From assembly GCA_003602605.1 (NCBI GenBank), contig QQRW01000018.1, forward strand, positions 286-64,285: DNA of 64,000 nt. The letters are read 5' to 3'. This DNA is from Candidatus Poseidoniales archaeon. Its GTDB lineage: Archaea; Thermoplasmatota; Poseidoniia; Poseidoniales; Poseidoniaceae. Below are positions 10,675 through 61,705 of the stretch, piece after piece (position 1 is the first letter of the stretch; each line of letters starts with the position of its first letter). A program made the position numbers and the translations under genes. The notes below the pieces were generated by a model. The model saw only the letters and a program-made list of their open reading frames with translations. It made no database searches and was not told where the DNA came from.

Positions 10675-10723
10675 CTCTGAAATCAACGAACTGACAGTAA
10701 TTAGAGGAGGGATAGCCGTGAAG

Positions 10724-43836: not shown

Positions 43837-43966
43837 ATTCTCATCTCAAACAGCGCTAACTGTTCGACTACTTAATTCCATTTTAACACTGAATTATGAA
43901 ATGAAATGAGAAAACTACCGGAGTTTGAGTCTCACCTTTGAAGAAGTCTCGCTGCGTGGGTCAATC

Positions 43967-45136
43967 ATGCCCAAACAGGTGTTGCTCGTCCGAGGCGGCG
44001 CCCTCTCAAGCAATACGGGTATCGGCGGGGCTCATCACAACCTTGCAACTTCACTTGCCGAAGGAGAGATTTCCGGATGGTCTACTTCCCAAGTTTGCGA
44101 GTACCCTTTGCGCCGTCGCATGAACCCGCTTTCACGTCTCTACAAGCGATGGTTTTCTCATCCTCGAAAAGTTGAGAAAAAGACACGAGGAGAGCATGGA
44201 CTTACTCTTCTTCATATCACAGATCAAGAACAAGCCCACCTCATTCCAGAAAATTGCTCTCTGCCTGTTGTTGTTACCGTTCACGATCTATTCCATCTGT
44301 GTCCTCAACAAATTCAAATTGGTGACGAAATAATCGATGTTGGCGAACAGAAACCGGGCTGGTTTCGTCGCAAAGATTTGCAAAAATTACGAGATGGACT
44401 TTCGCGTGCGGACCTCCTCGTTTGTGATTCACAAGCAACTCTGTCTGCATGCAAACAACATTTCCCTGAGATAAAATCGGTTTGCGTACCGCTCGGACTT
44501 CGTATTCAATCGTTCACTCCAGTTGCTCAAGATTCAGTCGATGTACTTACTCCCGCTCGCGACTTTACGAAGAAATGCCATTTGCTCATCGTTGGAAGTC
44601 ACGCCCCTCGAAAGCGCCTTGAATTCCTGTGCAAGGTTCTCGGTGAATTGGAAGAGGAAGTCAAAAACAGCATTCAGATTCATCATGTTGGGAATGAGAA
44701 ATGCCCATTTGGAGGCCCATCTGCATCTGCACATGCTCGCGCTCACAAGGTTCTCAATTGGACATCCCATGGTGGTGATGTTTCCAGTGAAGCATTGATG
44801 CATATGCGGTTCGCCAGTGAAGCATTGCTTTTCCCGAGTGCAAGTGAAGGATTTGGCTACCCTCCGCTTGAGGCGATGGCGAGTGGCACTCCTGTACTGT
44901 GTTCAAATCTCCCTTCACACAATGAACTGATGCCTGATGACACATGCCTAAGAGCTGATGACAAAGAAGCATGGAAAGAAGCCATTCTTTCTGTCCATTC
45001 AAATTGGAAGAATCGTACCAAAAACGACACTGAACATTCCTGGCCAAAACCTCGTTCAGGCTTAATCGAGTTTGCTACACGTTTCGATCAAAGCAGATTT
45101 TGCGCACGAATGGCTGAAGTATACGATTCCTTGTGA
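43967..45136 (+). CDS. GT4-family glycosyltransferase
   Basis: C-terminal 'FPSASEGFGYPPLEAMASGTPVLCSNLPS' (EX7E-like GT4 motif); N-terminal 'GGAHHNLATSL'. Confidence 0.7.
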   Translation: MPKQVLLVRGGALSSNTGIGGAHHNLATSLAEGEISGWSTSQVCEYPLRRRMNPLSRLYKRWFSHPRKVEKKTRGEHGLTLLHITDQEQAHLIPENCSLPVVVTVHDLFHLCPQQIQIGDEIIDVGEQKPGWFRRKDLQKLRDGLSRADLLVCDSQATLSACKQHFPEIKSVCVPLGLRIQSFTPVAQDSVDVLTPARDFTKKCHLLIVGSHAPRKRLEFLCKVLGELEEEVKNSIQIHHVGNEKCPFGGPSASAHARAHKVLNWTSHGGDVSSEALMHMRFASEALLFPSASEGFGYPPLEAMASGTPVLCSNLPSHNELMPDDTCLRADDKEAWKEAILSVHSNWKNRTKNDTEHSWPKPRSGLIEFATRFDQSRFCARMAEVYDSL

Positions 45137-45239
45137 ACAGTACGCTTGTTCGGAAAGCACAGTCGAACATTCAGCAGTCCGTATGCCGTTCCATGCCTAC
45201 TTTGAGAGTCGGCACCTTTGCTCTGGAACTGAAATTGGT

Positions 45240-45773
45240 TTAGATTTGGAAGAGAAGGATGAGCAACATCGAGACCGCAAACACTGCATTCGCGGTTCGG
45301 AATCTGTTCCAACGGTTCCACGGCGATTCAAATTCCGTACGTGATGCTGAGGCACTGGAATCATCGAGTGCATCAATATCCAATGCTTGCAACGAATCAT
45401 TGAGAGGAATGTTGAATCGAAATGTTGGTAATTGGACACCCAATAAATACAGAGCAGATGCGATCCAGAGAAGATAGACTTGTATTCCAGTCAAATTCAT
45501 TGTTCCCAGTACTAGTGTCGCAAGAACTGTGAGAATTGAACCGGCCCAGACCAGAATGAACAGAGGTTGATTGTTCTGTATGATTTCATCCATGTGTTTG
45601 AAAGCTAGAAGGAATTTTTTGTCTGTGAGTTTAGCAATACCTGGCATTACGACTATCGCAAATCCAAACAAGAGCCCTGCCACTAACGAGCACAATAAAA
45701 TCGACAACATGAGTGCCACATGTAGAGGGGTTAAGTCCATCTTAGGACCTCCTTGCACGTAACAGTTTTTCAC
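45240..45773 (-). CDS. small 4-TM membrane protein (DUF1772-like)
   Basis: 177 aa, four hydrophobic helices; weak resemblance to DUF1772/anthrone-oxygenase-like family. Hydrophobicity is the only firm evidence. Confidence 0.35.
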   Translation of the reverse strand: MKNCYVQGGPKMDLTPLHVALMLSILLCSLVAGLLFGFAIVVMPGIAKLTDKKFLLAFKHMDEIIQNNQPLFILVWAGSILTVLATLVLGTMNLTGIQVYLLWIASALYLLGVQLPTFRFNIPLNDSLQALDIDALDDSSASASRTEFESPWNRWNRFRTANAVFAVSMLLILLFQI

Positions 45774-45925
45774 TGTGCATGACTACCGCCATGTGGCCGA
45801 GTAAACAATTCTTTCTGATGCAGGTTTACACGGAATCAAAAATAAACTTCGACCGAGTGATCTTCTTCTATCTAACAGGTTGGCAGTCGGTAGCGTTCAA
45901 TACGGCCCATAGAAAGCGACTCCTC

Positions 45926-46591
45926 TCATCGGTGTTCGTAGACCATTGAGACGAAACGGTTTGCTTTATTTTTATCACTAAAGGAAATTGTTTGTTCATC
46001 GTTCACAGGAATATTGTATTTGTAGTGGCTCTGTCTTTCATCATAGTACTGAAATTCCTCAGTAATAGGAAGGTTTTTTTTGCGAATGAATTGGAGATTA
46101 GTCGGATGCCATCCACTGCGAAATTCCTGCATGGTGATGAACACCTCTTCCACTGGATCGTAATATTTTCTAATTCCGCCATCCCTCCAGAAGAATAATT
46201 TGTGGCTCCTTATGAAATTTGAAACGATGTGGATCGTGGCAAACAAAACAAGTGGTATTCCCGCAAAGAAAATGCTCCCCGCCACGAGTCCCCAATTTAA
46301 TTCACCTTCGTAGATGCTGAACGTGATTAAACGGTCATCTGGAATCTCTCCGTCGTTTGATTGGATGTAAGCCAATTTTTCTTCATAGCAACCCTCGGAC
46401 TTTAGCACCAAACTCCAGTGGTGTTCTGAATATTCAACATCGCCGGAGTGTGGCGGACCGACTTCAAAATCACTTCCGCAAGATGGACACTCAAAGGATA
46501 AACCCTGGGCGGTATCCATGTCGAGTTGTTCATCGCAATTTGGACACTGCACGAGCATTGAAGGCCCCTGAAGTGAGTGGTTTATATTCAA
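45926..46591 (-). CDS. N-terminal zinc-ribbon protein with single TM
   Basis: 'CPNCDEQLDMDTAQGLSFECPSCGSDFEV' (C-x2-C-x15-C-x2-C) followed by TM (GLVAGSIFFAGIPLVLFATIHIV). Contains A8 homopolymer in CDS (46074-46081). Confidence 0.45.
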   Translation of the reverse strand: MNINHSLQGPSMLVQCPNCDEQLDMDTAQGLSFECPSCGSDFEVGPPHSGDVEYSEHHWSLVLKSEGCYEEKLAYIQSNDGEIPDDRLITFSIYEGELNWGLVAGSIFFAGIPLVLFATIHIVSNFIRSHKLFFWRDGGIRKYYDPVEEVFITMQEFRSGWHPTNLQFIRKKNLPITEEFQYYDERQSHYKYNIPVNDEQTISFSDKNKANRFVSMVYEHR

Positions 46592-46861
46592 ATCGCCGAC
46601 GTTTTTTTTTCTGTGCAGGGGGACCCATCCTTGAGGTGCCTATTGGATGGGTGTTGGATGGGTTACAATTTTTCAATGCCTCTTCATGGAATGAATATGG
46701 ATGGTAAACAGTTTTTTTCAATCTCACAACGACTTTCCAACCTTGCTGGCCAAGTCCATTTAATTTAGATTGAAAATCGGAATCAACTATCGATAGCAGT
46801 GAGGCTTTCAGCCTTGCCCGTCGGGTCAACCTTCTTATGGGACGAGGTGTGGGAAGTCGCC

Positions 46862-49800
46862 ATGAAGGTACAGACCCTCCTACTGACTTTGATGCTGTTG
46901 CTCTCCGGATGCCTCGGCATGGCCGATGAAGACATTGAAATCGACAAGAACGATATGTTCCCAGATGATGATGCAGCGTACTACGATACCGATGGTGATG
47001 GATTACCAGACCAACTTGATGGTGAATCAACGTCCACACCCCCGCTCGTCGCAGACACGGACGACGATAACGATGGTTTCCTAGACACGATGGAAACCAC
47101 TTGTGGCACAGATCCACTCAACGCAACCTCCTTCCCGGAGGATCTTGATGGGGACTTCGAATGTGACGAGTACGATTTTGATATTGATGGTGACACCGTA
47201 ATCAACGACGCTGATGCCTTCCCTCGAGATGCCAGCGCATCTACCGACACTGACGGCGATGGCATGCCTGACACACTCACCGGGGAATCTACCCTCATTG
47301 AAGATCTCGACGACGATAACGATGGCTGGTCAGACCTCGATGAAACAGCGTGTGGTAGCAACTCATTGGTTGCAAGCCTCATGCCAGTTGATGCAAACGG
47401 AGACGGCATCTGTGATGCAGTTTCGACTGACGACGATGCTGACACCTACTCCGATGACGAAGAGACACAGTGTGGATCAGACCCACTCGATGCAGCAAGC
47501 ATTCCTGCTGACCTTGACAACGACACAATTTGTGACGCATTGGACGATGACATGGACGGCGACGGCACACCCAATGCCCAAGACATGTACCCACGTGACC
47601 CAAGCAAGCACGAAGACGTCCCAGGTTGCACCGACACCGCCTCATTCAACTTTGATGCCGATGCAAACCTCGATGATGGAACGTGCGTTGACGCAGAAGA
47701 TGTCTTCGGCATGATGCTGAATTTCGTGGAGAACGAAACATGGCACAGTTTCGATTCCTCTAGCGAGGACTTTGACGGTGATGGAGCTGTTGATTTCATC
47801 ATGAGTATGCTCATGATTTCCGCACCGGCACAAGATTCAGTGCTCATGAATCAAGTGATTTCTAATCCTGATGGTGAAGAGATGCTCAACATCACCTACC
47901 TATACTCGAGTGGAACGATTCAACTGGACCAATATGTTGTTGTGGAAGAAGATGAGGACAGTGGCGAACAACTCACCATGAACGATCAAGTCCTCATCCA
48001 CCACCAATACATGGCTAATCCTTTCATAGAGGCTCCAGAATGGATGCATTGCGAGCAACTTCCTGACAACACATGGCTTTGTTCCGATTCGGATTATTTT
48101 ACTGAAGGCAACCCCGACAGCGCCACAGAAACGCTCCACCAGTACACATGCGCCGATGGAACAACCATCATGAGCAGCGAGGTCAATGACGGAACTGAAG
48201 ACTGCGCTGATGGTTCTGACGAACCACAATTCACAGAAACCTACTCTTACACCTGCTTGAGCGGCGAAACAATCGGCCTCATGCACGTTAACGACGGAGA
48301 CGAAGACTGTGCTGATGGGTCAGACGAGGCCAAAATATTCCAATGCGCTGATGGTTCCTATGTGTACTTTGCAGTAGCAAACAACGGTGGCGCTGACTGC
48401 AACGATGATTCGGACGAACCTGCATATAATGTTACTGAACTCTCAACCTATGATTGCGCGGACGGCAGTCAAATTTACCTCTCACAGGTCAACGACGGCG
48501 TTGAAGATTGCCTGGATGCAGATGATGAACCCACTTACGAAGATACTGAACAGACTTACTTTGATTGTGACGACGGAATCTCATACATTTACCTCTCACA
48601 AGTCAACGATGGTACCGAAGACTGTGCAGATGGTGAAGACGAAGCAACCTTTGACGAAGATGGTGAAGAAACATCTACCTTCGAATGTGAATACACTGGA
48701 GATATCATACCATTGTCATATGTCAACGATGGTGAGGAAGATTGCTATTACGGTGACGACGAGCCATTTGTTGGGGAAGAAGAGACTTCCGTCTTCGATT
48801 GCGCTGATGGTTCAGATACCATTGATCTCTCAGAAGTCAATGACGAATACCAAGACTGTGAGGACGGTTCAGACGAACCAGTCTATGATATGACAGAGAC
48901 CTCGATGTTCGACTGTGAGGATGGCAGTCAAATCTTCTTCTCACTCGCAAATGATGGTGTTGAAGATTGTGCAAACGGTGAGGATGAACCGTCTGAAGAA
49001 TACGTTGAATACACAAGCTTTGATTGCGCTAATGGTGACACTATTCCATTATCCCTCGTCAACGATGGTACTGAAGACTGCCAAAGCGGCGATGATGAAC
49101 CATCCTACGATCCAATCACAGGTTCAGAACTCACCACTTATCAATGTCCATATTCGGGAGAGTCAATCGCTCTTTCCTTGGTGAACGATGGAAGTTATGA
49201 TTGTGGAGACTATGAAGATGAACCTTATGGTGATATTGAGGAGACCTCTTTCTTCACTTGCGACAATGGCGACGAAATCGTGATGAGCTGGCTCAACGAT
49301 AATTACAATGACTGCGAAGGTGGTGAAGACGAAGCACAGTTCGACATGGGAGAAGAAATCAGTGTCTTTACGTGCGCTGACGGATCTGAAGTGTCATTCT
49401 CATTGGTGAACGATAACAACAACGACTGCGCTGACGGTGAAGATGAATACTACACCTACGAGTGTGCAGATGGTAGCGACACTATTCCGCTTCTCGCAGT
49501 TAACTTTGGATACTATTTCTGTCAGGATGATTCCGATGAATCCGATGCTGAAGAATCGAGCGAATTCACTTGCTTTGATGGAGAAACTATTCCGCTGAGT
49601 TACTACTCTGATGGTGAAGCAGACTGCTCAGATCGCTCTGATGAGATCTCTTTCGACGACGATTATACCGATTGTGTTTGGGACGCTGAGGCTGGATTCT
49701 GGGTCTGTGCCGAGACAATGCCTGAAGGCACTTGGTCAGGTGAAATGCAAGAGGATGGCGGCATGATTGTCACCATCACCGAAATCGACCCCGATTCTTT

Positions 49801-50887
49801 GGTAGAAGAGAACATGAGAGTGACAATTTCCCCTGATATGTCAGTTGTATCAATCGAAATCGAAGAAACGGTTGAGGGAGATGTTGTCATCATGTCCTAT
49901 GTTGCCGGAACCGGCGGCCATGACCTCTTGATTGACACGACCCTCGAAGAAGCCGCTCCACCGTTTGTTGTTGCCTTTGATGGGGAACCAATTCAACAGG
50001 CTACATTTGAGTGCAATGATGGAACAATCATCGATTTTGCTCTCCTCAACGATGGTGCTTATGATTGCGCTGATGAAGAAGATGAACCTGATTTTGTGGA
50101 AGAAGAAATAACTTTCTGGATGTGCGCTGATGGCGAATCTGAGATTCTCCTCTCTGCTGTTTCGAATGGAAACCCCGACTGTGATGATGGGTCTGATGAA
50201 ATTCTTACTTCAACCTTCGATTGTGATGACGGAACCTCAATCACCCTCGATAAAGTGAGTGATGAAAACATGGATTGCGTCGGCGGCGAGGATGAGCCTC
50301 AATTTGAACAGGGAGAGGACAACAATATCTTCTACTGTTATGATGGCTCAGACTCAGTACCTATGGAATGGGTCAATGACGACTGGGATGATTGTGCTGA
50401 CGGATCTGACGAAGGCCTTGGCGATGGTCACGGTTATGGCCAATACATGGTCGGAGCAATCGGTATGGCGGCTGACGATATTGTTGAATGGAACGGAGGT
50501 TCAATTACCGATGCAACAAGTGCAGACGGCATGGATCTTGTCCTATCATTGTGTGATTCATTCAAGACAATCGACGGCGAAAATGGCGAATACACCGTCG
50601 GTGAAGGCTGTGGTGACGATGTTGAGCGTTGGTCGTTTGCTGACATTGCAGCAGGCGATGTCGACGGAATTGAGTTTTATGACGCTGATGAAAGCGGTAC
50701 ACTCACCGATGGAGACATGTTCAGTATCACGGACCTTGATACCATGGAGGACTGGAACGCAGTTCGATTGGCAAAGGGTACGACCTACGCTGATGAGAAT
50801 CCTGAAGTCGTACTTCCTGGATTCACAGCAGCACTTGGTATCATCTCGATGCTCGGTGCAGCGCTGCTTGTTCGCAAGAACGAGTGA
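46862..50887 (+). CDS. extremely acidic cell-surface Ca2+-binding-repeat protein (TSP3-like N-terminal repeats plus about 25 degenerate LDL-receptor class A-like 'C-x-DGS-x-I-x-LS-x-VNDG-x-EDC-x-DGSDE' repeats) with PGF-CTERM-like anchor
   Basis: Lipobox-like signal (MKVQTLLLTLMLLLSGCLG). 'DTDGDGLPDQLD', 'DTDDDNDGFLD' TSP3-type motifs. Periodic repeat of about 30-33 aa with the 2-Cys 'DCxDGSDE' core. C-terminal 'VLPGFTAALGIISMLGAALLVRKNE'. Confidence 0.7.
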   Translation: MKVQTLLLTLMLLLSGCLGMADEDIEIDKNDMFPDDDAAYYDTDGDGLPDQLDGESTSTPPLVADTDDDNDGFLDTMETTCGTDPLNATSFPEDLDGDFECDEYDFDIDGDTVINDADAFPRDASASTDTDGDGMPDTLTGESTLIEDLDDDNDGWSDLDETACGSNSLVASLMPVDANGDGICDAVSTDDDADTYSDDEETQCGSDPLDAASIPADLDNDTICDALDDDMDGDGTPNAQDMYPRDPSKHEDVPGCTDTASFNFDADANLDDGTCVDAEDVFGMMLNFVENETWHSFDSSSEDFDGDGAVDFIMSMLMISAPAQDSVLMNQVISNPDGEEMLNITYLYSSGTIQLDQYVVVEEDEDSGEQLTMNDQVLIHHQYMANPFIEAPEWMHCEQLPDNTWLCSDSDYFTEGNPDSATETLHQYTCADGTTIMSSEVNDGTEDCADGSDEPQFTETYSYTCLSGETIGLMHVNDGDEDCADGSDEAKIFQCADGSYVYFAVANNGGADCNDDSDEPAYNVTELSTYDCADGSQIYLSQVNDGVEDCLDADDEPTYEDTEQTYFDCDDGISYIYLSQVNDGTEDCADGEDEATFDEDGEETSTFECEYTGDIIPLSYVNDGEEDCYYGDDEPFVGEEETSVFDCADGSDTIDLSEVNDEYQDCEDGSDEPVYDMTETSMFDCEDGSQIFFSLANDGVEDCANGEDEPSEEYVEYTSFDCANGDTIPLSLVNDGTEDCQSGDDEPSYDPITGSELTTYQCPYSGESIALSLVNDGSYDCGDYEDEPYGDIEETSFFTCDNGDEIVMSWLNDNYNDCEGGEDEAQFDMGEEISVFTCADGSEVSFSLVNDNNNDCADGEDEYYTYECADGSDTIPLLAVNFGYYFCQDDSDESDAEESSEFTCFDGETIPLSYYSDGEADCSDRSDEISFDDDYTDCVWDAEAGFWVCAETMPEGTWSGEMQEDGGMIVTITEIDPDSLVEENMRVTISPDMSVVSIEIEETVEGDVVIMSYVAGTGGHDLLIDTTLEEAAPPFVVAFDGEPIQQATFECNDGTIIDFALLNDGAYDCADEEDEPDFVEEEITFWMCADGESEILLSAVSNGNPDCDDGSDEILTSTFDCDDGTSITLDKVSDENMDCVGGEDEPQFEQGEDNNIFYCYDGSDSVPMEWVNDDWDDCADGSDEGLGDGHGYGQYMVGAIGMAADDIVEWNGGSITDATSADGMDLVLSLCDSFKTIDGENGEYTVGEGCGDDVERWSFADIAAGDVDGIEFYDADESGTLTDGDMFSITDLDTMEDWNAVRLAKGTTYADENPEVVLPGFTAALGIISMLGAALLVRKNE

Positions 50888-50995
50888 ATCTGCTTACGGT
50901 GAACATCTGTTGTGGGTTGGCCTTGCTCGACTGTGTCAACCTTTGATCGGAATGTGTACAGAAAAGACTAATGCAGGGTTTTATCTAGTGATTTC

Positions 50996-51535
50996 ATGAC
51001 TGTGAAGAATTTGATGATGGCTCTCATGATGGCGTCAATGGTTTTCGTTGGCTGCATAAGTGATTTAACACCGTTTGGTGGAGAGAATGTTGGAACTTTT
51101 GACATCGATGGCCTCGGCACTGGAACAGCTGAAACGGATGACATGATTGTGAAGTTAGAGTTGATAAACAGCACATCTCCAATCCAGTTCCACGATGGTA
51201 CATCTGCACAGGATGGAGCAGAACACTACAGATTTCGCCTCGTAGTAGGCGATCCAGATGACGAAAACAGCCCCACGTACGAATGTAGGCTAGCATCCAA
51301 TTCACCAGATGCTTGTCTCATCATAGAAACCGTCGAAGACGGAGTATGGATGCCTGAGGAAATTATTACATTGCGAGAGAACAATGTGGACATATGCAGT
51401 GAAGGTTGTCTCAATCAATTGACAATTATGAACGGAGACATAACGACCGAACAGGAAGAGAATCTGCAATATCTCGGCCAAGAATCAACGAGTGGGTCCG
51501 TTGGACACACGACGAATTTTTGGATGGGTCAATAA
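50996..51535 (+). CDS. small secreted lipoprotein-like protein
   Basis: Signal peptide with 'VFVGC' lipobox-like motif; acidic mature domain. Confidence 0.4.
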   Translation: MTVKNLMMALMMASMVFVGCISDLTPFGGENVGTFDIDGLGTGTAETDDMIVKLELINSTSPIQFHDGTSAQDGAEHYRFRLVVGDPDDENSPTYECRLASNSPDACLIIETVEDGVWMPEEIITLRENNVDICSEGCLNQLTIMNGDITTEQEENLQYLGQESTSGSVGHTTNFWMGQ

Positions 51536-51536
51536 C

Positions 51537-51905
51537 TCAAATTTGTATCGAATCACTGACAAGTTCTGCTCCGCAGTTCATGCAATGCTTGCCTTGCGAG
51601 GGTGTCTGCTCATTGCACGTGTTGCAGGTGATGTAGCCATGAAGTTCGAGCACAGCCCTTTGTTTGATCATCACCCAAGCGACCCATGCATAGGCCACAG
51701 TCAGCAACACAAACAGTCCAAAGACAGCACCGGTGCCGAGAGATAAGAACTGAACACCTAGAGCAAAAGCGAGGAATACACTGGCAGTAAATGCATAGAC
51801 CGGCCATTCCAAGCGCATGCTTAACCCACTCTGTGCATGTATTTGATTTATATTCAGAGATGAGTCCAACACTTGCATAACTTGCAGTGTTGTAAGAACC
51901 CACAA
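51537..51905 (-). CDS. small 3-TM protein with C-terminal zinc ribbon
   Basis: Three hydrophobic helices then 'CNTCNEQTPSQGKHCMNCGAEL' (C-x2-C-x11-C-x2-C). Confidence 0.45.
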   Translation of the reverse strand: MWVLTTLQVMQVLDSSLNINQIHAQSGLSMRLEWPVYAFTASVFLAFALGVQFLSLGTGAVFGLFVLLTVAYAWVAWVMIKQRAVLELHGYITCNTCNEQTPSQGKHCMNCGAELVSDSIQI

Positions 51906-51936
51906 CGCTCAAAGGGGTCGGAGCGAAGGCACGTGT

Positions 51937-53172
51937 ATGAGCACCCGCCGTCTCTTCGCCGCAGTGCGAGACCTCGATCCACCAGGAGGCGGTGCAGAGC
52001 GTTCTTTGGCGACCCTGCTGAACGGTATTTCCGTACCTGGGCCAACGCTCGAAACCGCTCCAACGTTCGTTCCCATGTCATCCGCTGCAGATGCTCCAAC
52101 GCATCCAGCGTGGACGGTGAGTGCCTTTGCAAGTCACGACAGAGGCGACCCTATCGGTTTGCTTGAACCCGAGGTGACATTTGAAACCACAGACCTTCCA
52201 CTCGAAGAATTCTGGTCGAAGGTCGCATGGGTTCTGCGAGAGCGCAAAGGCGAGCTTAGACGTAGAAAGTGGGCCCTTGACCGACACATTGCCAAGCGAA
52301 GTTCCCAATTCGCCGCAGAAGTTGGTTCATGGTTGGACAAACACGATGTAGAAGGCGGCATTGGCCTGACCCAACTTGACTGGGCACCAGGGGCCGCAGA
52401 AGCGTTTGCTTCCCGTGGAATGCCTTATGTCATGTTCGTTCGAGATGACAAGCCTTTCTTGCTCGAGGAACGCTTTCGCCCTGTAATAGAGGGCGCAGCC
52501 CTCGTGTGTGCAGCTGGGGAAGGTTTGCTGGCTGATATTGAATCACGTTTTTCCATCCAGAAAGGTCACAACGTACCATTACCAATCGACTTTACTCGAC
52601 GCTTTGGGAGCATAGAAGAGGTTAACGCCTTGCGTTTGGCTGAGCAAGCGAAGCGACCTGCTGGTTCTCCACCAACCATCGGGATTATGGGAGTGGTCCC
52701 TGAAAAGGGGCTTCGAACATCTCAACGCATCCTACCTAGGTTGCTCGAACGATGGCCCGAGGCAGAAGTTCTGATCGCAGGAGATAATACGTATTCGCAA
52801 GATCTCGCTCACCATCCAAACGCACGGATTCTAGGCTACATTGATGCAGCAGCGTTCTTCTCGAAAATCGATATCCATCTTATTCTATTTGAGAGGACAG
52901 GAACGTGGGGACGGGTCATAGGGGAAGCAGGCTTGTTCGGTGTACCAAGTGTGACTTCCGACATTGGCTCGCAAAAGGAAGCGTTGGGAGAGGGAGGCAT
53001 TCTGGTGGACGATGGTCATGATACGGATGCAGTCATTGATGCCCTGATGGCCGTGTATGAGGACCGAGAGCGCTATGGGGCACTGGCGCGCAAGCACACA
53101 CAAATGGTTGATCATCGGCGGTCTGTGGCCGCCTTCCGCACCGGGCTTGAGGATTTGTTTGAAGGCCGTTGA
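51937..53172 (+). CDS. GT4-family glycosyltransferase
   Basis: N-terminal 'PGGGAERSLATL'; C-terminal 'GRVIGEAGLFGVPSVTSDIGSQKEALGEGGILV' GT4 signature. Confidence 0.7.
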   Translation: MSTRRLFAAVRDLDPPGGGAERSLATLLNGISVPGPTLETAPTFVPMSSAADAPTHPAWTVSAFASHDRGDPIGLLEPEVTFETTDLPLEEFWSKVAWVLRERKGELRRRKWALDRHIAKRSSQFAAEVGSWLDKHDVEGGIGLTQLDWAPGAAEAFASRGMPYVMFVRDDKPFLLEERFRPVIEGAALVCAAGEGLLADIESRFSIQKGHNVPLPIDFTRRFGSIEEVNALRLAEQAKRPAGSPPTIGIMGVVPEKGLRTSQRILPRLLERWPEAEVLIAGDNTYSQDLAHHPNARILGYIDAAAFFSKIDIHLILFERTGTWGRVIGEAGLFGVPSVTSDIGSQKEALGEGGILVDDGHDTDAVIDALMAVYEDRERYGALARKHTQMVDHRRSVAAFRTGLEDLFEGR

Positions 53173-53385
53173 GTCCAGTCTGCTTGAAGGACCCTACACT
53201 CACCCACTGAGCCAGCTAAGGTTTGGAGTGAGCAGCGGGCAACATGAGCGCCCAGCTCAGTGAGGCTCCAGTGTACCGTGTTAGGTAGAAATGATTTGGG
53301 CCATAGTAAGGGAACGTTCTTGAGCAAAAGGGTTGTCCCCGTAATATCAGGTAATGGTTATACCAGTGTCTGTTGAGGTTTTTGA

Positions 53386-54030
53386 ATGATAAATCGGATT
53401 CGGCAAATGCTATTTAGAATGCGTCATAAAAACAGCCCTTTCCCGGGGTCTTCTGAATATTGGGACCGCCGTTACCGTAGTGGAGGTACTTCGGGGGATG
53501 GTTCGTACGGCGGTTTGGCGGATTTCAAGGCCGAAATAATCAACGTATTTGTCGAGGAAAACGGTATTGATACTGTAGTCGAATTAGGTTGTGGTGATGG
53601 GAACCAACTTGGATTGATGGATGTCCCACAGTATACTGGTTATGATATTTCTAAAAAAGCTGTAGAGATGTGTGCAAAAAAGTACTCGGCTGATTCTTCA
53701 AAGAAATTTATTCACTATTTACCCAACCAATACGATGGTGAGGCGAAAGCGCAACTTTCACTCTCATTGGATATCATTTACCACTTAGTCGAGGATGTAG
53801 TATTTGAAACGTATATGCACCATTTATTCCAGTTAGCCAGTGATTGGGTCATTGTCTATTCCAGTAACTCGGAGGATCCGGAAGCAGAAGGGATTGAACA
53901 CTGTAGGAATCGAAAGTTCGTCGATTGGGTTGGTGCAAATATTTCAGGCTGGGAACTTGTTAACAAAATCAAAAACCGCTACCCTGAACGTTCAAGATGT
54001 GATTTCTATATTTACAAAAAGTCGGCATGA
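53386..54030 (+). CDS. class I SAM-dependent methyltransferase
   Basis: 'VVELGCGDGNQLGLM' (motif I GxGxG), 'YTGYDIS' (motif II). Confidence 0.6.
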   Translation: MINRIRQMLFRMRHKNSPFPGSSEYWDRRYRSGGTSGDGSYGGLADFKAEIINVFVEENGIDTVVELGCGDGNQLGLMDVPQYTGYDISKKAVEMCAKKYSADSSKKFIHYLPNQYDGEAKAQLSLSLDIIYHLVEDVVFETYMHHLFQLASDWVIVYSSNSEDPEAEGIEHCRNRKFVDWVGANISGWELVNKIKNRYPERSRCDFYIYKKSA

Positions 54031-54053
54031 TTTAACCGGTATCCAGGCGAAGG
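53951..54053 (+). repeat. direct repeat copy 1 (about 100 bp, 3 mismatches versus copy 2), spanning the methyltransferase 3' end and stop
   Basis: 'aacaaaatcaaaaaccgctaccctgaacgttcaagatgtgatttctatatttacaaaaagtcggcatgatttaaccggtatccaggcgaagg' recurs at 55248. Confidence 0.85.
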
Positions 54054-54201
54054 CCGCTCGGCTTTTTGGTGTTCTTGCTCATCCACATTCTAAATTGCAA
54101 AACACCAAATCTGGTGTGTGTGACCAAAGTGTTATTGCCAAAATGCTGGTTATCGAAATCACACCAAAAATAAACCTTTCATTAAAAATTGAAAATGAAA
54201 T

Positions 54202-55164
54202 CTATTTGTCATTAATTAAAAGTTCATATTCCATGCCATTTTTATTATTCGGCATATCTAACTTATGAGGTAAATTGTAGTCTGTTGAAACATTTGAGTG
54301 TTTGGAAAAAGTTACCTCCAATACAAGGGGCAAATCATCATCTTCGCGTAATGGACGGAAATTATTAGCATGAACATGAACTAAATTTAAACTCAATTCA
54401 TTTATGAACTTTTCAATTTTGTTAAGATGTATATCAACATCATGAAACTCAAGCACTAAGCCAGTAATTCTCTCTTCATTAGCGACAATGTCATGCAAGA
54501 TCCGATATTCAGATCCTTCTATATCAATTTTCAAAAAAATATTGTTACTTTCAGTTTGATTTAAAACATCCATAAAAGTGCAGTACTGCTCACTTTTAAT
54601 ATTCGAGCCTACAAATTTTTGGAGATGATTAACATTTGGTTGAGTTTTAATATCCATGCTTACAAATTTTGTGATATGATTAACATTTGATTGAGAGAAG
54701 AATTTTCTATAATTTAAGAGCACATTTAGCGAATTCAGAAAGCGTTTAAATCTATAAATCCTTAATGCAGATCCCAAGAGGCGTCTGAAGAAAATTCTTT
54801 CACTAACACTCGCATCATAAGCCTCTATGGATACTTTTTTTTGATTTAAGAAATCCTCTTCAAAACTCCAATCATCACTAATACCAAATCCTAAAAGTAA
54901 ATCTGTTTGTTCAATGTCTGATTTTGAAACGAGATATCCTCCATCATAATCCCTTCCAATTCGGACTAAATCCGTTGATTGCTTTATTGAAAAGAAATGT
55001 GGTAGTCGTGCTTTCATAATGTTATGGACAGGAGGAGGGGCAATAAGTGTTTTTGAATGGTTGATAATATCTGTTGCTAAGGGCAGACGCTGGGAAAAAG
55101 TCCCATGTTCCTTCTTTAGTAAGGGGTTATCCGAAACCCCTTTGCATTTTATATCCCGATACAT
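54202..55164 (-). CDS. FkbM-family methyltransferase
   Basis: 'FLKIDIEGSEYRILHDI' (FkbM 'DIEGxE' signature); low GC; lies between the two direct repeats. Confidence 0.6.
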   Translation of the reverse strand: MYRDIKCKGVSDNPLLKKEHGTFSQRLPLATDIINHSKTLIAPPPVHNIMKARLPHFFSIKQSTDLVRIGRDYDGGYLVSKSDIEQTDLLLGFGISDDWSFEEDFLNQKKVSIEAYDASVSERIFFRRLLGSALRIYRFKRFLNSLNVLLNYRKFFSQSNVNHITKFVSMDIKTQPNVNHLQKFVGSNIKSEQYCTFMDVLNQTESNNIFLKIDIEGSEYRILHDIVANEERITGLVLEFHDVDIHLNKIEKFINELSLNLVHVHANNFRPLREDDDLPLVLEVTFSKHSNVSTDYNLPHKLDMPNNKNGMEYELLINDK

Positions 55165-55247
55165 GGGGATTCAGTGGGTCGATACAGACGCTCCCCTCTG
55201 CTTGACCCATCTTGAAGGCGCAGGGTTATGATGGAGGCTATCTCGTT

Positions 55248-55342
55248 TAACAAAATCAAAAACCGCTACCCTGAACGTTCAAGATCTGATTTCTATATTT
55301 ACAAAAAGTCGGCATCATTTAACCGGCATCCAGGCGAAGGTC
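55248..55342 (+). repeat. direct repeat copy 2
   Basis: Near-identical to 53951-54053; encodes a pseudo-ORF fragment 'NKIKNRYPERSRSDFYIYKKSA'. Confidence 0.85.
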
Positions 55343-55353
55343 CAACCTACCGT

Positions 55354-56250
55354 TTACCCTTGCTCAAGAAGACGTTCTTGTTCTGCGAGCAGAGCATAGG
55401 TGCTGGGAAGGAAGGTCTGGCGAAGTTGCACATCGTTTTGTTGTTCAGAAACATTGGTCTTATGCAGGGCTTGTTCTTGGCTCCCAGGTATATTGTCAAA
55501 TTCAATGCTTTCCTCTGCTACTAAACCAATACCAACGCCGTGTTCAATGGATTGAAATGTGAGCCAAATGTCATCGGCTCGGGGACATGTTTCCCTAAAT
55601 CCATCTCCTGCCTTCCGCATTATCTCAAGGAAATTCGGGGGAAACAATACTCCTGAGACACACGTGGCAAAATTCAGATGACTCGGTCCTTTAATTCCGG
55701 GTGGCCACGAATTATAGGGGGCGAGCCCTTTCTTGTCATCACTGAGAACTATTCTGTGTGCTCGATGTGCCATGACTGAAGTTGGTTCACGTTGTGCTGC
55801 TTCAAGGATGCGTTCCAGCCACCAATTTGGATAGAATATATCGTCGTCGGCAACAATATGTGGGCGAGAAAAATCTGGAGCGTTTTGAATCCACCACTGT
55901 ATCTTCGTATGCGGACCGAGATTTTCAGCCAGATGGATTTCCAAACCTCGTTTCATCAGCCGTTTCAAGGCCTTAGTTGGATGCAATACATCTTTCTCTA
56001 CATCTAAATAAAGCATGAATCTTGAGGGGAGAACCGTCCCCTTAGCAATTGTCTCGATGGCGATGTGGGCAGTTTTCAAGCGTTGCCCGTAGGTTGTCAT
56101 TGAGACAGTGGGGCCTTCTGGATGAAGGATGGAGGAAGAAGTGAAACGGTTTCTCAATCCGAGACGAAATGCTCTCAACGGCAGCAGAATCCTCTTTAGA
56201 TGATTTCGGAGGTAGGATTTCACATTGGGAACTCTCATGCACTTTACCAA
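55354..56250 (-). CDS. putative glycosyltransferase (DxD-type)
   Basis: 'PHIVADDDIFYPNWW' DxD-like motif; no closer assignment possible by eye. Confidence 0.4.
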   Translation of the reverse strand: MVKCMRVPNVKSYLRNHLKRILLPLRAFRLGLRNRFTSSSILHPEGPTVSMTTYGQRLKTAHIAIETIAKGTVLPSRFMLYLDVEKDVLHPTKALKRLMKRGLEIHLAENLGPHTKIQWWIQNAPDFSRPHIVADDDIFYPNWWLERILEAAQREPTSVMAHRAHRIVLSDDKKGLAPYNSWPPGIKGPSHLNFATCVSGVLFPPNFLEIMRKAGDGFRETCPRADDIWLTFQSIEHGVGIGLVAEESIEFDNIPGSQEQALHKTNVSEQQNDVQLRQTFLPSTYALLAEQERLLEQG

Positions 56251-56368
56251 CGTTGTTGATTCAAAGGGCTAATTCGCGTATTCTTATACCTTTCCCAGCA
56301 CTGGTGCTACCGAAGAAAACGATACACTGCAGTTCACATCATGAGGCCAGTATCTGTTCTGGATCTTC

Positions 56369-56929
56369 TTACACTCCGAGAACAGTGACAAATCTTTGAA
56401 CAGTATCTTGAAATTTTTTCCTCCACCCCTTTTCTTTGGAGTTTTTATGGAATACTGTGATTTCAAGTTCCCAATCTTCACCCCACAAAGTGCTACCTTG
56501 AATCCATATCCCACTTGAACCTCCCGAACCTTTTCCATCGCCGGTATCTTCGGCGATATTCATTTTCACCTTCTTCACTTCGGACAATTTGTGTTCAAAG
56601 GTTTGATCGATTTTGCCAAAGAGCGTGGAACGAAGTTCCAATGTGTCACGGCCTTTATCGATTTGAATCACATAAATGCGTAACAGTCCACGTTGAGTTC
56701 TGAAAATGAGGTAGGGTATGACGGCGTAAAACGGCCCAATACAGATGGTGCCTAAAATGCCAAGAACCATTTCTCGTCTCCCAGTTTGAATCACATCCGT
56801 AAGTGATGTCAAAGGGAGCACGATGGAAAATACCAATAGAGGAATAAGGAAAATGGAAATGAATACTTTTTCATGAAAAGGATACTCTCCTTTTTCTTGA
56901 TATTGAGCAGCATGGGTTTCTTGTTCCAC
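56369..56929 (-). CDS. hypothetical 3-TM membrane protein
   Basis: 186-aa ORF with three hydrophobic helices N-terminal and a soluble Gly-rich C-terminal region. Confidence 0.35.
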   Translation of the reverse strand: MEQETHAAQYQEKGEYPFHEKVFISIFLIPLLVFSIVLPLTSLTDVIQTGRREMVLGILGTICIGPFYAVIPYLIFRTQRGLLRIYVIQIDKGRDTLELRSTLFGKIDQTFEHKLSEVKKVKMNIAEDTGDGKGSGGSSGIWIQGSTLWGEDWELEITVFHKNSKEKGWRKKFQDTVQRFVTVLGV

Positions 56930-57048
56930 AATTGAACTCGCGCGATTCTATTTTTAATCTATACCCCTGCGTATTGGTCTCGCTGCACAACAGAACAGAG
57001 AGAACTTCTGAGCGGAGTATTCATGGGTGGGTTTTTGCTGGCACTGCT

Positions 57049-59139
57049 ATGCAACCTATTCAGCGTGTAGCAATCGTCGGTGCGGGAAACATGGGTTCCG
57101 GTATCGCTCAGAAAACGGCTCAGGAAGAATTCGACGTCCAGATGGTTGACAGAGAGCAACAGTGGGTCGACCGCGGGCAAGGCATCATTCGTGATTTCCT
57201 CTCTGAGGCAGTAGAACGGCGCATTTTTTCACCGGCTCAAGTCGAGGCGATCCAAGGTCGAATTACGGGAGTTGTTGGCGTTGAAAACACAGCCGCAAAC
57301 ACCGACCTCGTTATCGAGGCTGTTTTCGAAGATTTTGACATTAAAACGGCAGTTTTCAACACATTGGACTCTGCATGTGGGCCCGAAACAATTCTTGCCT
57401 CTAACACGTCTTCGCTTTCCGTGAATGCCCTTGCTGAAGCAACGGGTCGAGCTGACCGGTTCGTTGGATTGCACTTTTTCTACCACCCGGCAAAGAACCG
57501 CTTAGTCGAGGTTATTCCAGCTGAAGCATCAAGCGCTGAAACAGTCGAGAAGGTCGTTCAATACTGTAAGATGTTGGGTAAAGTGGTCATTGTTTGTGGC
57601 GACCGACCAGGATTTGTAGTCAATCGATTCTTTGTTCCATGGCTCAATGAAGCATGTTTACTGCTTGAAGAGGGCGTTGCTACCGCTGCACAAATTGATG
57701 CAGCAGCATGCAAAGCGTTCCGAATTGGTTTGGGACCCTTTGGCCTCATGAACCTCACAGGCCCACCGATTGCTCTGCATTCTACGGATTACCTTGCTGA
57801 ACAACTTCATACTCCTCGCTACACCGGTGCTCAAAATCTACGGGATCTCATCGAAGCAAATGAGCACTGGGATGTATCTGGCGATCAAACATACTCTCCT
57901 GAACAGTACGCTGCAGTCGCAGAGCGACTCTACGGTGTCGTCTTTGGCGTTGCAGCACAAATTGTCGAAGAAGGCGTTTGTTCGATGGAAGATGTGGACC
58001 GCGGGGCGAAAGTTGGACTACGCTGGGCGCGAGGACCTTTCGAAATGATGAACCGTGTTGGTATTCAAGAAGCGCATCGCATGGCACAAGCTTACGCAGA
58101 TTTGAGTGCTGAAACCGACCCTGGACGCTCATGGACCGTTCCTGAATACTTTTCCAAGCAAGCGCAAGCAAACCAAGGATGGAACTTCTCGTACGTCGAT
58201 GTAAGCATCGAATCTGGAGTTGCCACGCTCACTATCAATCGACCCGAAGCCATGAATGCGCTCAATGAAACGGTCGTTGGACAACTGAACGATGCTCTTG
58301 ACCTTGTCAATGCTGATGCAGAAGTTCACACCATTGTACTCGATGGTGCTGGAAAGGCATTTGTTGCCGGCGCGGATGTCAAGTTTTTCGTTGATAAAAT
58401 TAGAGCGGAATCAATCCCTGACATCGTTACATTTACCGCTGATGGACACACCATGCTCAACAAATTGGAATCATCAAAGAAGACCACTGTTGCATTGACG
58501 ACAGGTCTTGCTCTTGGCGGTGGTTTGGAATTGGCTCTTGCTTGTGACTATCGAATCGGTACTCGGCGTACACAATTCCGTTTCCCGGAGACCTCCATCG
58601 GTATTTACCCTGGATTGGGTGGTACGCAACGCCCTGCACGTATTTGCGGCATTCCAGCTGCACGCTGGTCTGTTCTCGCTGGAAATTTCATGGATGCACA
58701 AACTGGATATGACCTTGGTCTTCTCACACACTTGGTTGATGTGGCTTCGGTTGATTCATGCGTTGCAGAATTGGCATCGGCCGGTAAACCGGACAACAAA
58801 TACCCCGGTGCACCTACAAACCCTACCAGTCCAGCAGCTGCTTTTGCTGCCTCGTTTTACAGCGATGAGAACATGGCATCCATCTTGAACGGGACATGCC
58901 CAGAAGGGTTTGACGCCGAGGATAAGATCGTCTCACGGCAATTGAAATCGCTCTCTCGAACCGCGCCAATTGCTTTGAAGATGGCCAGCGATTTGATCGA
59001 CGCCACTTCGACCACTGAATTGCCTGCAGGGCTTCAGATGGAACTCGACCAGTTGACAGATATTTTCTCAACCGCAGATTCATTGGAAGGTTTGTCTGCA
59101 CTCATCGAAGGTCGAAAACCGTCGTATTCAAACTCGTGA
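57049..59139 (+). CDS. fused 3-hydroxyacyl-CoA dehydrogenase (N-terminal) / enoyl-CoA hydratase (C-terminal)
   Basis: 'VAIVGAGNMGSGIAQ' Rossmann plus 3HCDH region; C-terminal crotonase motifs 'GKAFVAGADVKFF', 'ALGGGLELALACDYRIG'. ORF track starts at 56932; Met at 57049 precedes the Rossmann motif. Confidence 0.8.
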   Translation: MQPIQRVAIVGAGNMGSGIAQKTAQEEFDVQMVDREQQWVDRGQGIIRDFLSEAVERRIFSPAQVEAIQGRITGVVGVENTAANTDLVIEAVFEDFDIKTAVFNTLDSACGPETILASNTSSLSVNALAEATGRADRFVGLHFFYHPAKNRLVEVIPAEASSAETVEKVVQYCKMLGKVVIVCGDRPGFVVNRFFVPWLNEACLLLEEGVATAAQIDAAACKAFRIGLGPFGLMNLTGPPIALHSTDYLAEQLHTPRYTGAQNLRDLIEANEHWDVSGDQTYSPEQYAAVAERLYGVVFGVAAQIVEEGVCSMEDVDRGAKVGLRWARGPFEMMNRVGIQEAHRMAQAYADLSAETDPGRSWTVPEYFSKQAQANQGWNFSYVDVSIESGVATLTINRPEAMNALNETVVGQLNDALDLVNADAEVHTIVLDGAGKAFVAGADVKFFVDKIRAESIPDIVTFTADGHTMLNKLESSKKTTVALTTGLALGGGLELALACDYRIGTRRTQFRFPETSIGIYPGLGGTQRPARICGIPAARWSVLAGNFMDAQTGYDLGLLTHLVDVASVDSCVAELASAGKPDNKYPGAPTNPTSPAAAFAASFYSDENMASILNGTCPEGFDAEDKIVSRQLKSLSRTAPIALKMASDLIDATSTTELPAGLQMELDQLTDIFSTADSLEGLSALIEGRKPSYSNS

Positions 59140-59379
59140 TTATGCCCATTGGTTCTGGAGCTCTTCCATCTGTTTGATGAGCGCCACGATATCCAATGTT
59201 TCATCCTGCTCGTGAGCAAGTTCGATTCGATTCTTGACTGCTTGAACAAATTCTTGTTCTGGTTTTACACCAGTGATGTTTTCGATGAAGTCATCCAGTG
59301 AAGTGCCTTTTCCTTGAGCAATTGCAATTCGTGCTTTGATTTTCTCAGCGTCGTCCTTAGGTTTTCGGATTCCACTCAT
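59140..59379 (-). CDS. small (79 aa) predicted all-helical Lys/Glu-rich protein, translationally coupled to upstream JAMM gene
   Basis: ATG overlaps JAMM stop (ATGA on minus strand). Sequence 'MSGIRKPKDDAEKIKARIAIAQGKG...MEELQNQWA'. No Gly-Gly C-terminus. Confidence 0.4.
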   Translation of the reverse strand: MSGIRKPKDDAEKIKARIAIAQGKGTSLDDFIENITGVKPEQEFVQAVKNRIELAHEQDETLDIVALIKQMEELQNQWA

Positions 59380-59927
59380 GCTCTCACCTCTTCGGTGTTG
59401 AGGTTGCTTTCATACCAATCACCCCAAGGAATAATTTCTTCATCTGACCAATCATTCAACGGGCCGTTGGATGCAATTCTTGCCGTGTCTTCAGTCAACG
59501 GTAGCATGGTGGCGTTGTGAGCACATTTGACTCCAGGTGACCCGAGAACCATTGCTTTCTCAACGATACCTACTCCGATGGAGAGGCTTCGAGTATCTGT
59601 TCCGGACCAGTACGCACTGAATCCTGGATGTGTATGTACCCAGAGTTTGAACGGTGCAACACAACCAATCGGTGGTGAAAGTTGGACGAAACCGGAGGTT
59701 CCCCAATCGATCGAGATGACATTCTCTGCATCGATAAGCACCGATGTCTCAAGACCAGCGAGAACCGATATTGCATAGACGACATCCCATCGACCGTTCT
59801 GTGCTGCACGCTGTTGTACATCGAGCAAGACTTCGTCGTCAATTTGCCGTTGCTGAGCCATTTCAGTCACATGAGACCACATCTCTTCATCGACATTCAG
59901 TTGTTCTAGTCCGGGAATGAATATCAT
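59376..59927 (-). CDS. JAB/MPN (JAMM) metalloprotease-domain protein
   Basis: 'LWVHTHPGFSAYWSGTD' = HxHx7Sx2D JAMM zinc motif with upstream acidic residues. Start chosen at Met overlapping E1 stop (ATGA); ORF track extends to 60041 in another frame overlapping the E1 gene. Confidence 0.65.
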   Translation of the reverse strand: MIFIPGLEQLNVDEEMWSHVTEMAQQRQIDDEVLLDVQQRAAQNGRWDVVYAISVLAGLETSVLIDAENVISIDWGTSGFVQLSPPIGCVAPFKLWVHTHPGFSAYWSGTDTRSLSIGVGIVEKAMVLGSPGVKCAHNATMLPLTEDTARIASNGPLNDWSDEEIIPWGDWYESNLNTEEVRA

Positions 59928-60577: not shown

Positions 60578-60808
60578 GAGGACTTAAGAAATCGACCTTA
60601 CATAAACTTCGAGGAAGGTGATTCACCAACGGTTTGGATTGACCCTGCTGTCATGAATGCTATGGTCGTTGGAATACTCTGCGTTTTCTTTATGCCTTCA
60701 ACTGAATAAGAGAGAACAAAACTAAATAGCAAAAACAAGGAGAGAAATATATGGCAAGTGCTTCAACAAGAGTGTGGGCACACAATCAAGTTCAACTGAG
60801 GTTTTGAC

Positions 60809-61648: not shown

Positions 61649-61705
61649 AACTTGGTTCTACTGTAACGGCTCAACATTATAGCAACCATCCCTGTCACAC
61701 GACAC

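Follow-up and report, generated by a model that had tools for sequence, protein, structure and literature searches.

The low-density lipoprotein (LDL) receptor class A module, LDLa, is canonically closed by three disulfides, C1–C3, C2–C5 and C4–C6. Its Ca2+ is held in repeat 5 of the LDL receptor (LDLR) by D196, D200, D206 and E207 (numbering of the LR5 structure). On the surfaces of marine bacteria, adhesins of the RTX/BIg type use Ca2+ to stiffen the chain. Marine Group II (MGII) archaea are among the most abundant microbes of surface seawater (PMC6461757), and the literature on them speaks only of 'thrombospondin genes' (PMC6461757) or 'calcium-dependent adhesion domains' (PMC4511931). Here we describe a single gene, at 46862..50887 on the plus strand of a 64,000-nucleotide window of contig QQRW01000018.1 from a Candidatus Poseidoniales archaeon (Poseidoniaceae), that encodes an extremely acidic protein of 1341 amino acids (aa) built around 18 LDLa-like units. 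It is probably a conserved MGII surface protein that is exported, carries lipid-anchor signals and forms a Ca2+-loaded, extended polyanionic string, with Ca2+-dependent surface binding as its most likely role.

The assignment of the repeated units was based on profile, alignment and modelled structure. The Pfam family Ldl_recept_a (PF00057) matches the protein at E 1.5e-55 with 185.5 bits, against a cutoff of 24.1, in 16 separate stretches, and the match covers profile positions 5–34 of 37, including the F-x-C hairpin and the G-x-x-I core. The family PRKCSH-like (PF12999) also lies above its cutoff (36.7 bits vs 34.9), a match that is explained by the LDLa-like modules alone, and the only other families in the Pfam scan at E ≤ 1 are PGF-CTERM, TSP3_bac and LDLRAD1_C. 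When the first block of units was compared with PDB sequences using phmmer, megalin/LRP2 was matched best (E 3.8e-45), and VLDLR, glucosidase II beta and LDLR came next in this order. Because the megalin alignments fix the register, in which the query sfdCangdtIplslvNDGteDCqsgDDE is set against nfrCdnGyCIpasWrCDGtrDClddtDE, the two retained cysteines of each unit can be identified as C2 and C5; in the place of C3 stands Ser, Thr or another residue and in that of C4 stands Asn, while C1 and C6 are missing. For aa 930–1318, an AlphaFold2 model built with 24 aligned homolog segments has a predicted local distance difference test (pLDDT) score of 84–90 across the four units it contains, and a Foldseek search with this model returned megalin (E 2.3e-6, probability 1.00) together with VLDLR, LDLR, CD320, ApoER2 and glucosidase II beta.

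Classical PF00057 modules have six cysteines and three disulfides, while each of the 18 units has two cysteines, and we therefore treat the units as a reduced variant of LDLa. With just two of six cysteines left, they could be read as a convergent Asp-rich Ca2+-loop repeat of the dockerin, EF-hand or propeller-blade type whose DCxDGSDE motif mimics LDLa. The PROSITE signature LDLRA_1 (C-[VILMA]-x5-C-[DNH]-x3-[DENQHT]-C-x(3,4)-[STADE]-[DEH]-[DE]-x(1,5)-C), would favor such convergence, since it has no match in the protein and 15–51 matches in three canonical multi-module control proteins. However, the same signature matches 17 times once the three missing Cys positions are relaxed, the profile match reaches well beyond the acidic motif, the retained cysteines are exactly a native disulfide pair, and the model superposes on solved LDLa tandems with a probability of 1.0. 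Dockerin, EF-hand and propeller identities were rejected, as no such family appears in the Pfam scan of the protein even at E ≤ 1. We find convergence hardly credible; judged from the sequence and the modelled fold, the 18 units are homologous to LDLa modules and probably work like them. This agrees with a preliminary description of the window, which had proposed LDLa-like modules that keep the Ca2+-coordinating core with two of the six cysteines, and which had named the lack of an LDLa profile match and a better fit to a dockerin or propeller as the outcome that would speak against it.

The units fall into two blocks. Block 1 contains 14 two-Cys modules (aa 424–928, 48131..49645, +) and is defined by the Pfam match, the Cys map and the unit and megalin alignments. 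Block 2 contains four (aa 1046–1184, 49997..50413, +), defined by the Cys map, the AlphaFold2 model and Foldseek. By the layout of Cys pairs, the 14 units are contiguous in aa 430–928 and the four lie in aa 1051–1184. About 25 copies of a 30–33 aa unit had been reported previously, and both values need correction. Twenty-five is the count of all Cys pairs in the protein, the seven outside the LDLa-like units being four thrombospondin type 3 (TSP3)-type loops (aa 81–275), two Trp-containing loops and one pair in the C-terminal domain, while the distance from first Cys to first Cys inside a block is 30–40 aa, mostly 35–38, around a conserved core of 28–30 aa. The unit period of approximately 37 aa is the size of a canonical LDLa module. 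What does hold is the two-Cys pattern, which the Cys map and the alignment give for 18 of 18 units and which recurs in every detected unit of 78 homologs.

When the 18 units are aligned, their consensus reads x-F-x-C-a-D-G-x-x-I-x-L-S-x-V-N-D-G-x-x-D-C-x-D-G-[SE]-D-E. The position equivalent to D196 is Asp in 15 of the 18 units and Asn in two, the D200 equivalent is Asp in 17, and the D206 and E207 equivalents are Asp and Glu, respectively, in all 18. The complete set of four acidic Ca2+ ligands is present in 15 units. At the C4 position, 1297 of 1403 units of the main family (92 %) have Asn.

Both ends of the protein carry features of a membrane-anchored surface protein. The N-terminus has a Sec-type signal with a lipobox (46862..46912, +), predicted from the sequence and its conservation in the family. 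The lipobox-like signal reads MKVQTLLLTLMLLLSGC, as the preliminary description had it, and the L-S-G-C at aa 14–17, preceded by the hydrophobic MKVQTLLLTLMLL, fits the definition [LVI][ASTVI][GAS]C (PMC12462473), with predicted lipid attachment at Cys17. The motif L[LMV]LSGCLG is kept in all complete family N-termini checked, and lipidation of lipobox proteins with thioether-linked archaeol, dependent on AliA (arCOG02177), occurs in Euryarchaeota (PMC12462473). The C-terminus reads VLPGFTAALGIISMLGAALLVRKNE and can be divided into the tripartite ...VVL-PGF-TAALGIISMLGAALLV-RK-NE, that is P-G-F, a hydrophobic helix and an R-K-N-E tail (50807..50884, +), for which archaeosortase cleavage and a lipid anchor are predicted. 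Pfam PGF-CTERM (PF18204) matches aa 1319–1339 with 24.0 bits against a cutoff of 18.8, and a relative of 80 % identity (P0009) has the NCBI name 'PGF-CTERM sorting domain-containing protein', which is in keeping with the PGF-CTERM-like anchor suggested earlier; the NCBIfam model TIGR04126 stays below its cutoff. Archaeosortase A (ArtA) is reported to cleave PGF-CTERM (bioRxiv 10.1101/2023.06.07.544157). Many other surface proteins of Poseidoniales end in PGF tails. No exosortase or archaeosortase was found among the window and locus proteins scanned, a set that is not informative for the whole genome. Every relative has a C-terminal sorting signal, and the lipobox is present in the complete N-termini checked; the C-terminal signal is LPGF in close Poseidoniaceae relatives and LPAPG[IVA]GF in distant members, a difference that may mean that the motif recognised by archaeosortase has shifted within the order.

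Between the lipobox and the LDLa-like units lies an Asp-rich Ca2+-loop cassette of TSP3 type (aa 22–275, 46925..47686, +). It contains nine D-x-D-x-D-G-like loops at aa 42–238, and Cys-bridged loops at 81–101, 164–184, 204–224 and 256–275. The TSP3-like motifs described previously are therefore present as motifs, but the profile evidence is below threshold, with Pfam TSP3_bac (PF18884) matching three stretches at E 1.4e-4 and 22.1 bits against a gathering score of 25. Of the Pfam profiles proposed as a check, Ldl_recept_a and PGF-CTERM thus exceed their cutoffs and TSP3_bac does not. Close homologs carry a precomputed PF18884 match, marked faint at one set of loci, and the eukaryotic TSP_3 family has no match in the Pfam scan of the protein. 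The cassette is a shared lineage module, being 35–47 % identical to internal segments of approximately 40 other large surface proteins, of which several are named Poseidoniales, many have PF18884 and several end in PGF tails.

The product contains 368 Asp and Glu residues (27.4 %) and 15 Lys and Arg (1.1 %), with a computed isoelectric point of about 4.05 and 51 cysteines. The extreme acidity noted in the preliminary description makes it an outlier in a comparison of 28 window proteins, the other 27 having 6–17 % Asp and Glu and 3.4–16 % Lys and Arg, and genome-wide acidity was rejected as the source of this composition for the same reason. Paralogs pair the two-Cys module with EF-hands and PGF-CTERM, which supports a calcium theme, and they have no enzymatic domains. 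The very dense and conserved sets of acidic ligands, the 27 % of acidic residues with almost no basic ones, and the EF-hands added in paralogs could also be taken to mean that the protein is a cation sink, which stores or buffers Ca2+ or other metal ions at the surface by means of some 18 cages and the TSP3 loops and has no part in macromolecule binding or structure. For sequestration, though, three conserved non-repeat domains, a fixed order of modules and two anchors would be superfluous. Ca2+ is moreover abundant and nearly constant in seawater, so buffering it at the surface would have no obvious benefit, and we consider a sink very improbable.

A Ca2+-dependent surface binding protein could work as follows. 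After export by its Sec signal the protein would carry a lipid-anchor signal at each end, as the motifs predict, with Cys17 of the lipobox lipidated by an AliA-type pathway and the C-terminal helix of PGF-CTERM removed by ArtA, which would attach a lipid. Each unit would bind one Ca2+ through four acidic side chains (the D196, D200, D206 and E207 equivalents), and its two cysteines would form the C2–C5 disulfide, tying the N-lobe hairpin to the Ca2+ loop. With the C1–C3 and C4–C6 disulfides gone, Ca2+ may take over their stabilizing role. Seawater contains approximately 10 mM Ca2+ and LDLa modules have affinities in the nM–µM range; the cages would be saturated under these conditions, and Ca2+ could therefore make up for the loss of two disulfides. 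What results would be a polyanionic chain, stiffened by Ca2+ and fixed to the membrane by one end or by both, and its likely job the capture of cationic, Lys- or Arg-rich protein or peptide ligands on the acidic face of the cages, or adhesion to particles.

From the conserved ligands we infer, reasonably in our view, a function in Ca2+ binding or adhesion. We favor Ca2+-dependent binding because LDLa modules do this and because MGII have been linked to particles and protein degradation; hypothetical proteins with domains for Ca2+-dependent adhesion are overrepresented in MGII genomes on particles (PMC4511931). Several observations weigh against this interpretation. Unit 13 lacks two of its Ca2+ ligands. 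At the W193 equivalent, where canonical modules have the aromatic residue that clamps a ligand lysine, only about 42 % of the family's units have an aromatic residue or His, and only two of the 18 units here have Trp, so lysine capture in the manner of LDLR is not assured. The NCBIfam model TIGR04126 (PGF_CTERM) scores 20.3 bits, below its cutoff of 24.5. Finally, a fixed repeat number, strong purifying selection and housekeeping neighbors are less typical of a variable adhesin than of a structural part of the envelope.

The conservation of the array bears directly on this last point. A protein search returned at least 78 relatives with the same architecture at 35–100 % identity, nearly all of them full length, including a database protein that is 100 % identical (P0001). 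Their database names are 'hypothetical' or 'PGF-CTERM sorting domain-containing protein', and they come from Poseidoniaceae, Poseidonia and Thermoplasmatota metagenome-assembled genomes (MAGs). Related loci occur in uncultured Poseidoniales genomes, among them a 2.06 Mb MG-II chromosome (CM001443.1) that encodes a relative with 79 % identity over the full length. The relatives have 13–21 units each, mostly 16–18. In a 43-sequence alignment of this protein with 42 diverse relatives at 34–83 % identity, all 18 units align column for column and the 14 + 4 layout is kept. Both cysteines of the unit are retained in 37–42 of the 42 homologs, and the columns of Ca2+ ligands in 34–42 for most units, the D200 equivalent of unit 13 being kept in 23. 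When units were compared between proteins, the unit with the same index came out best in 18 of 18 cases for a relative of 82 % identity, and in 4–9 of 18 for relatives of 35–48 % identity, where about one would be expected by chance. The ratio of nonsynonymous to synonymous substitution rates (dN/dS, ω) against three orthologs is approximately 0.10 overall; by part it is about 0.03 in the TSP3 cassette, the most constrained, 0.07–0.11 in the LDLa blocks, and 0.2–0.3 in domain B, the least constrained. At the DNA level, TRF found no tandem repeat with the period of the unit, and recent duplication or an assembly artefact was rejected as the origin of the array on this ground. The array is old, fixed and strongly constrained, not a rapidly expanding adhesin repeat.

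In a subgroup of three relatives (P0016–P0018; 1592–1594 aa with an identical C-terminal tail), three to four extra two-Cys units lie between domain A and block 1, giving 20–22 units in total. The array can therefore grow by insertion, though it is otherwise fixed.

The same molecule and the same calcium chemistry could also serve a structural role, in which the protein is a core envelope component such as an S-layer (surface layer) subunit or a Ca2+-stiffened tether or spacer, anchored at both ends as a loop or strut and keeping the membrane and an outer layer of protein a set distance apart. The 14 + 4 layout and the 18 units kept column for column across 42 relatives, the excess of same-index best matches over chance at 35–48 % identity (4–9 of 18 against about one), the ω of about 0.1 and the conservation of both anchor signals are what such a role would lead one to expect, and in other genomes the gene stands alone among unrelated housekeeping genes. 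The best-known PGF-CTERM substrate, the S-layer glycoprotein of Haloferax, points in the same direction, and the searchable literature yielded nothing on the MGII envelope. Known archaeal S-layer proteins, on the other hand, are built of Ig-like or beta-sandwich domains that form lattices, while LDLa strings are flexible beads with no known lattice precedent. The protein has only five N-glycosylation sequons (N-x-S/T) in 1341 aa, and giant CARDB, PKD and Ig-like proteins in the same window are better S-layer candidates. We regard a structural role as the main alternative, though a doubtful one, and Ca2+-dependent surface binding remains the reading that we prefer.

To see how far the two-Cys unit extends, block 1 was scanned exhaustively with HMMER against 1.84 billion representative proteins, which gave 1270 matches at E ≤ 0.001, and the best 150 of these were classified by Cys pattern. 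Among these 150, Asn or Ser at C4 together with no more than two Cys per unit is found only in low-Cys proteins (approximately 2–5.5 % Cys), the complete two-Cys proteins mostly end in PGF-type tails, and all other matches have canonical six-Cys modules with 6–13 % Cys. The named cluster members of the additional two-Cys proteins are Poseidoniales, Thermoplasmatota, Euryarchaeota or unclassified 'archaeon' MAGs. Poseidoniales have one conserved main family and some 15 further two-Cys representative clusters, and one Poseidoniales contig of 440,573 bp carries a main-family member and a paralog together. The single-disulfide LDLa variant with Asn for C4 is apparently confined to Poseidoniales-type archaea, where it is lineage-typical, fixed and visible to automatic annotation. 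A stronger proposal would be that the unit represents a minimal LDLa fold in its own right, held together by one disulfide and Ca2+, which evolved in or is confined to Poseidoniales; we think this unlikely.

The preliminary description had called such a module unusual on an archaeal surface protein, which is true in so far as no published description of the two-Cys variant was found in the searchable literature, and untrue in so far as the variant is routine in Poseidoniales and some two-Cys proteins already bear the NCBI label 'low-density lipoprotein receptor class A repeat-containing protein'. Literature searches found no paper that connects either the LDL receptor or PGF-CTERM with MGII, Poseidoniales or archaea, and among the papers listed none that connects archaeosortase with MGII or Poseidoniales.

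Three domains and two Cys loops make up the remainder of the protein. Domain A (aa 276–396, 47687..48049, +) has in its model a single helix that packs against an antiparallel beta-sheet (mean pLDDT 69), and its best Foldseek match in the PDB is not significant (E 0.047). Domain B (aa 950–1045, 49709..49996, +) is predicted to be all-beta (strands with pLDDT 54–77). Domain C (aa 1185–1315, 50414..50806, +), a predicted membrane-proximal beta domain with strands at pLDDT 68–88, is the best conserved of the three, with invariant columns and the motifs G-H-G-Y-G-x-Y ... W-N-A-V-R-L ... Y-A-D-E-N-P-E-V. None of the domains has a Pfam or NCBIfam match, or a significant PDB fold match in Foldseek searches with the AlphaFold2 models, and homology between them was rejected at hhalign probabilities of ≤ 5 %. 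The two Cys loops, identified from the Cys map and alignment, bracket block 1, have C-x9/10-C spacing and show weak profile similarity to each other; no known motif was assigned to either. Cys loop 1 (aa 397–407, 48050..48082, +) has the consensus W-S-H-C-E-x-D-G-x-x-W-Y-C, in which W143, H145, C146, E147, W154 and C156 (alignment columns) are invariant in 20 sequences; the consensus stretch including W-S-H covers aa 394–407 (48041..48082). Cys loop 2 (aa 938–949, 49673..49708, +) has the pattern D-C-x-W-x5-W-x-C with C9, W18 and C20 (alignment columns) invariant in 24 sequences, and is modelled as a beta-hairpin with pLDDT of about 60.

The coding sequence itself is complete (1341 aa plus stop, exactly as positioned in the preliminary description) according to the list of open reading frames, the composition, the relatives and dN/dS. 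The reading frame is intact from the ATG at 46862 to the stop codon at 50885–50887. An alternative in-frame start, GTG 46799, lies upstream. The ATG is preferred because a Shine-Dalgarno-like GAGGTG (46844..46849, +) can be read 12 nt 5' of it and because the N-termini of homologs begin at the equivalent Met with MK(V/L/I)QTLLL.

The neighborhood of the gene is not conserved. At four loci (L001–L004), the region up to 10 kb from the orthologs contains no homolog of any of 14 window genes that neighbor the LDLa gene, and at three others (L005–L007) the orthologs are surrounded by unrelated housekeeping genes, so gene neighborhood was rejected as a functional clue, there being no sign of an operon. 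The window genes fit an archaeal context, with HVO-type helix-turn-helix regulators, a Cas4-like nuclease, CARDB and PKD surface proteins and beta-oxidation enzymes. The LDLa gene lies at the edge of a glycosyltransferase/methyltransferase cluster (43925..63000) that contains GT4 glycosyltransferases at 43925–45136, 51937–53172 and 61706–62941 and FkbM-type or other methyltransferases at 53386–54030 and 60809–61648, with a weak match at 54202–55164. GC content falls to 0.39 at 54–56 kb and 0.41 at 60–62 kb, compared with approximately 0.48 elsewhere in the window, and none of the cluster genes flank the orthologs in the other genomes examined. This region is probably a variable surface-glycan island.

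Other predicted surface proteins are found in the window. Profile scans show a run of giant ones at 2717..18257 (+), consisting of an 832-aa PKD protein, a 1574-aa protein with no Pfam or NCBIfam match at all, a 1539-aa protein with subtilase and CARDB domains, and a 989-aa NPCBM_assoc/Ig-like protein; as candidates for the S-layer or envelope they rank ahead of the LDLa protein. A 601-aa acidic protein at 32916..34721 (-) ends in LVPSFAPSVMLLLLAGFAISVFQRRTRD, a 'P-x-F-x-P-S + helix + basic' tail that resembles the LPF[TMV]SP... tails of three two-Cys LDLa paralogs (P0185, P0203, P0214), and tails of the LVPSFAPSVMLLLLAGFAISVFQRRTRD type may, judged by sequence, serve the lineage as a second kind of C-terminal sorting signal, other than PGF. 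Zinc-ribbon motifs occur in small proteins on either side of the LDLa gene, at 45926..46591 (-) and 51537..51905 (-), whose translations appear to have hydrophobic, membrane-type segments, and also at the C-termini of the large CARDB/PKD proteins at 2717..5215 and 34735..37716. Only 109 bp 3' of the LDLa gene, at 50996..51535 (+), is a gene for a 179-aa acidic protein with a lipobox-like signal of its own, MVFVGC; it has no Pfam or NCBIfam match and is not found beside orthologs.

MGII are uncultured, and a predicted surface-exposed protein that is conserved across the order offers a concrete handle on their envelope, with possible uses as a target for antibodies, cell sorting and metaproteomic quantification, or in the interpretation of cryo-electron tomography. 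Its predicted double lipid anchoring, by lipobox and PGF-CTERM, is a directly testable topology. The more than 1400 LDLa-like units that dispense with two of three disulfides and keep the Ca2+ cage amount to a natural experiment, one that bears on the share of calcium in holding the LDLa fold and on the origin of a module usually deemed animal. If the unit were indeed a distinct minimal fold it would be an obvious docking site for MGII viruses, as LDLa modules are for animal viruses. No paradigm is overturned by these findings, as the domain types had been guessed correctly and some relatives were already recognised by automatic annotation.

The closest described system is the LDLa module itself (PF00057; LDLR repeat 5, megalin/LRP2, VLDLR). 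The archaeal units share its occurrence in tandem arrays with a period of about 37–40 aa, the F-x-C hairpin, the G-x-x-I core, the D-G-x-x-D-C-x-D-x-S-D-E cage with four acidic ligands, and the C2–C5 pair. They differ in the loss of C1, C3, C4 and C6, so that one disulfide is possible rather than three, in the Asn at C4 and in the poor conservation of the ligand-clamping Trp. The whole protein also differs from LDL receptors, being found in an archaeal host with a predicted lipid anchor rather than as a type I endocytic receptor, and having no EGF or YWTD propeller partners. The G2B domain of glucosidase II beta (PF12999; PDB 5F0E, 7KBJ) likewise has paired LDLa-like Ca2+ modules and gives a PDB sequence match at E 2.9e-10, but its modules, which are eukaryotic, keep the full disulfide set, and the EF-hands and MRH domain of that protein are absent here. 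With TSP3_bac (PF18884) the N-terminal cassette shares the nine D-x-D-x-D-G-x-x-D loops and the C-G-x-D-P-L...D-x-D-G-x-C-D elements, while scoring below the family threshold as given above.

In its anchoring the protein is most like the substrates of archaeosortase A, such as the Haloferax volcanii S-layer glycoprotein, with which it shares a tripartite C-terminal signal, acidity and an archaeal surface. It has no Ser/Thr-rich linker, the motif being preceded instead by Y-A-D-E-N-P-E-V-V-L; in distant members of the family the motif is LPAPG[IVA]GF; there is an additional N-terminal lipobox; and the body consists of LDLa modules, not of the Ig-like domains of the Haloferax volcanii protein. 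The RTX/BIg-type adhesins, such as the Marinomonas ice-binding adhesin, have an unrelated fold and secretion route and no homology to the present protein, whose repeat number is fixed and not highly variable. They are a functional analogy only, in that they too form long tandem arrays of small Ca2+-holding modules on the surface of a marine microbe.

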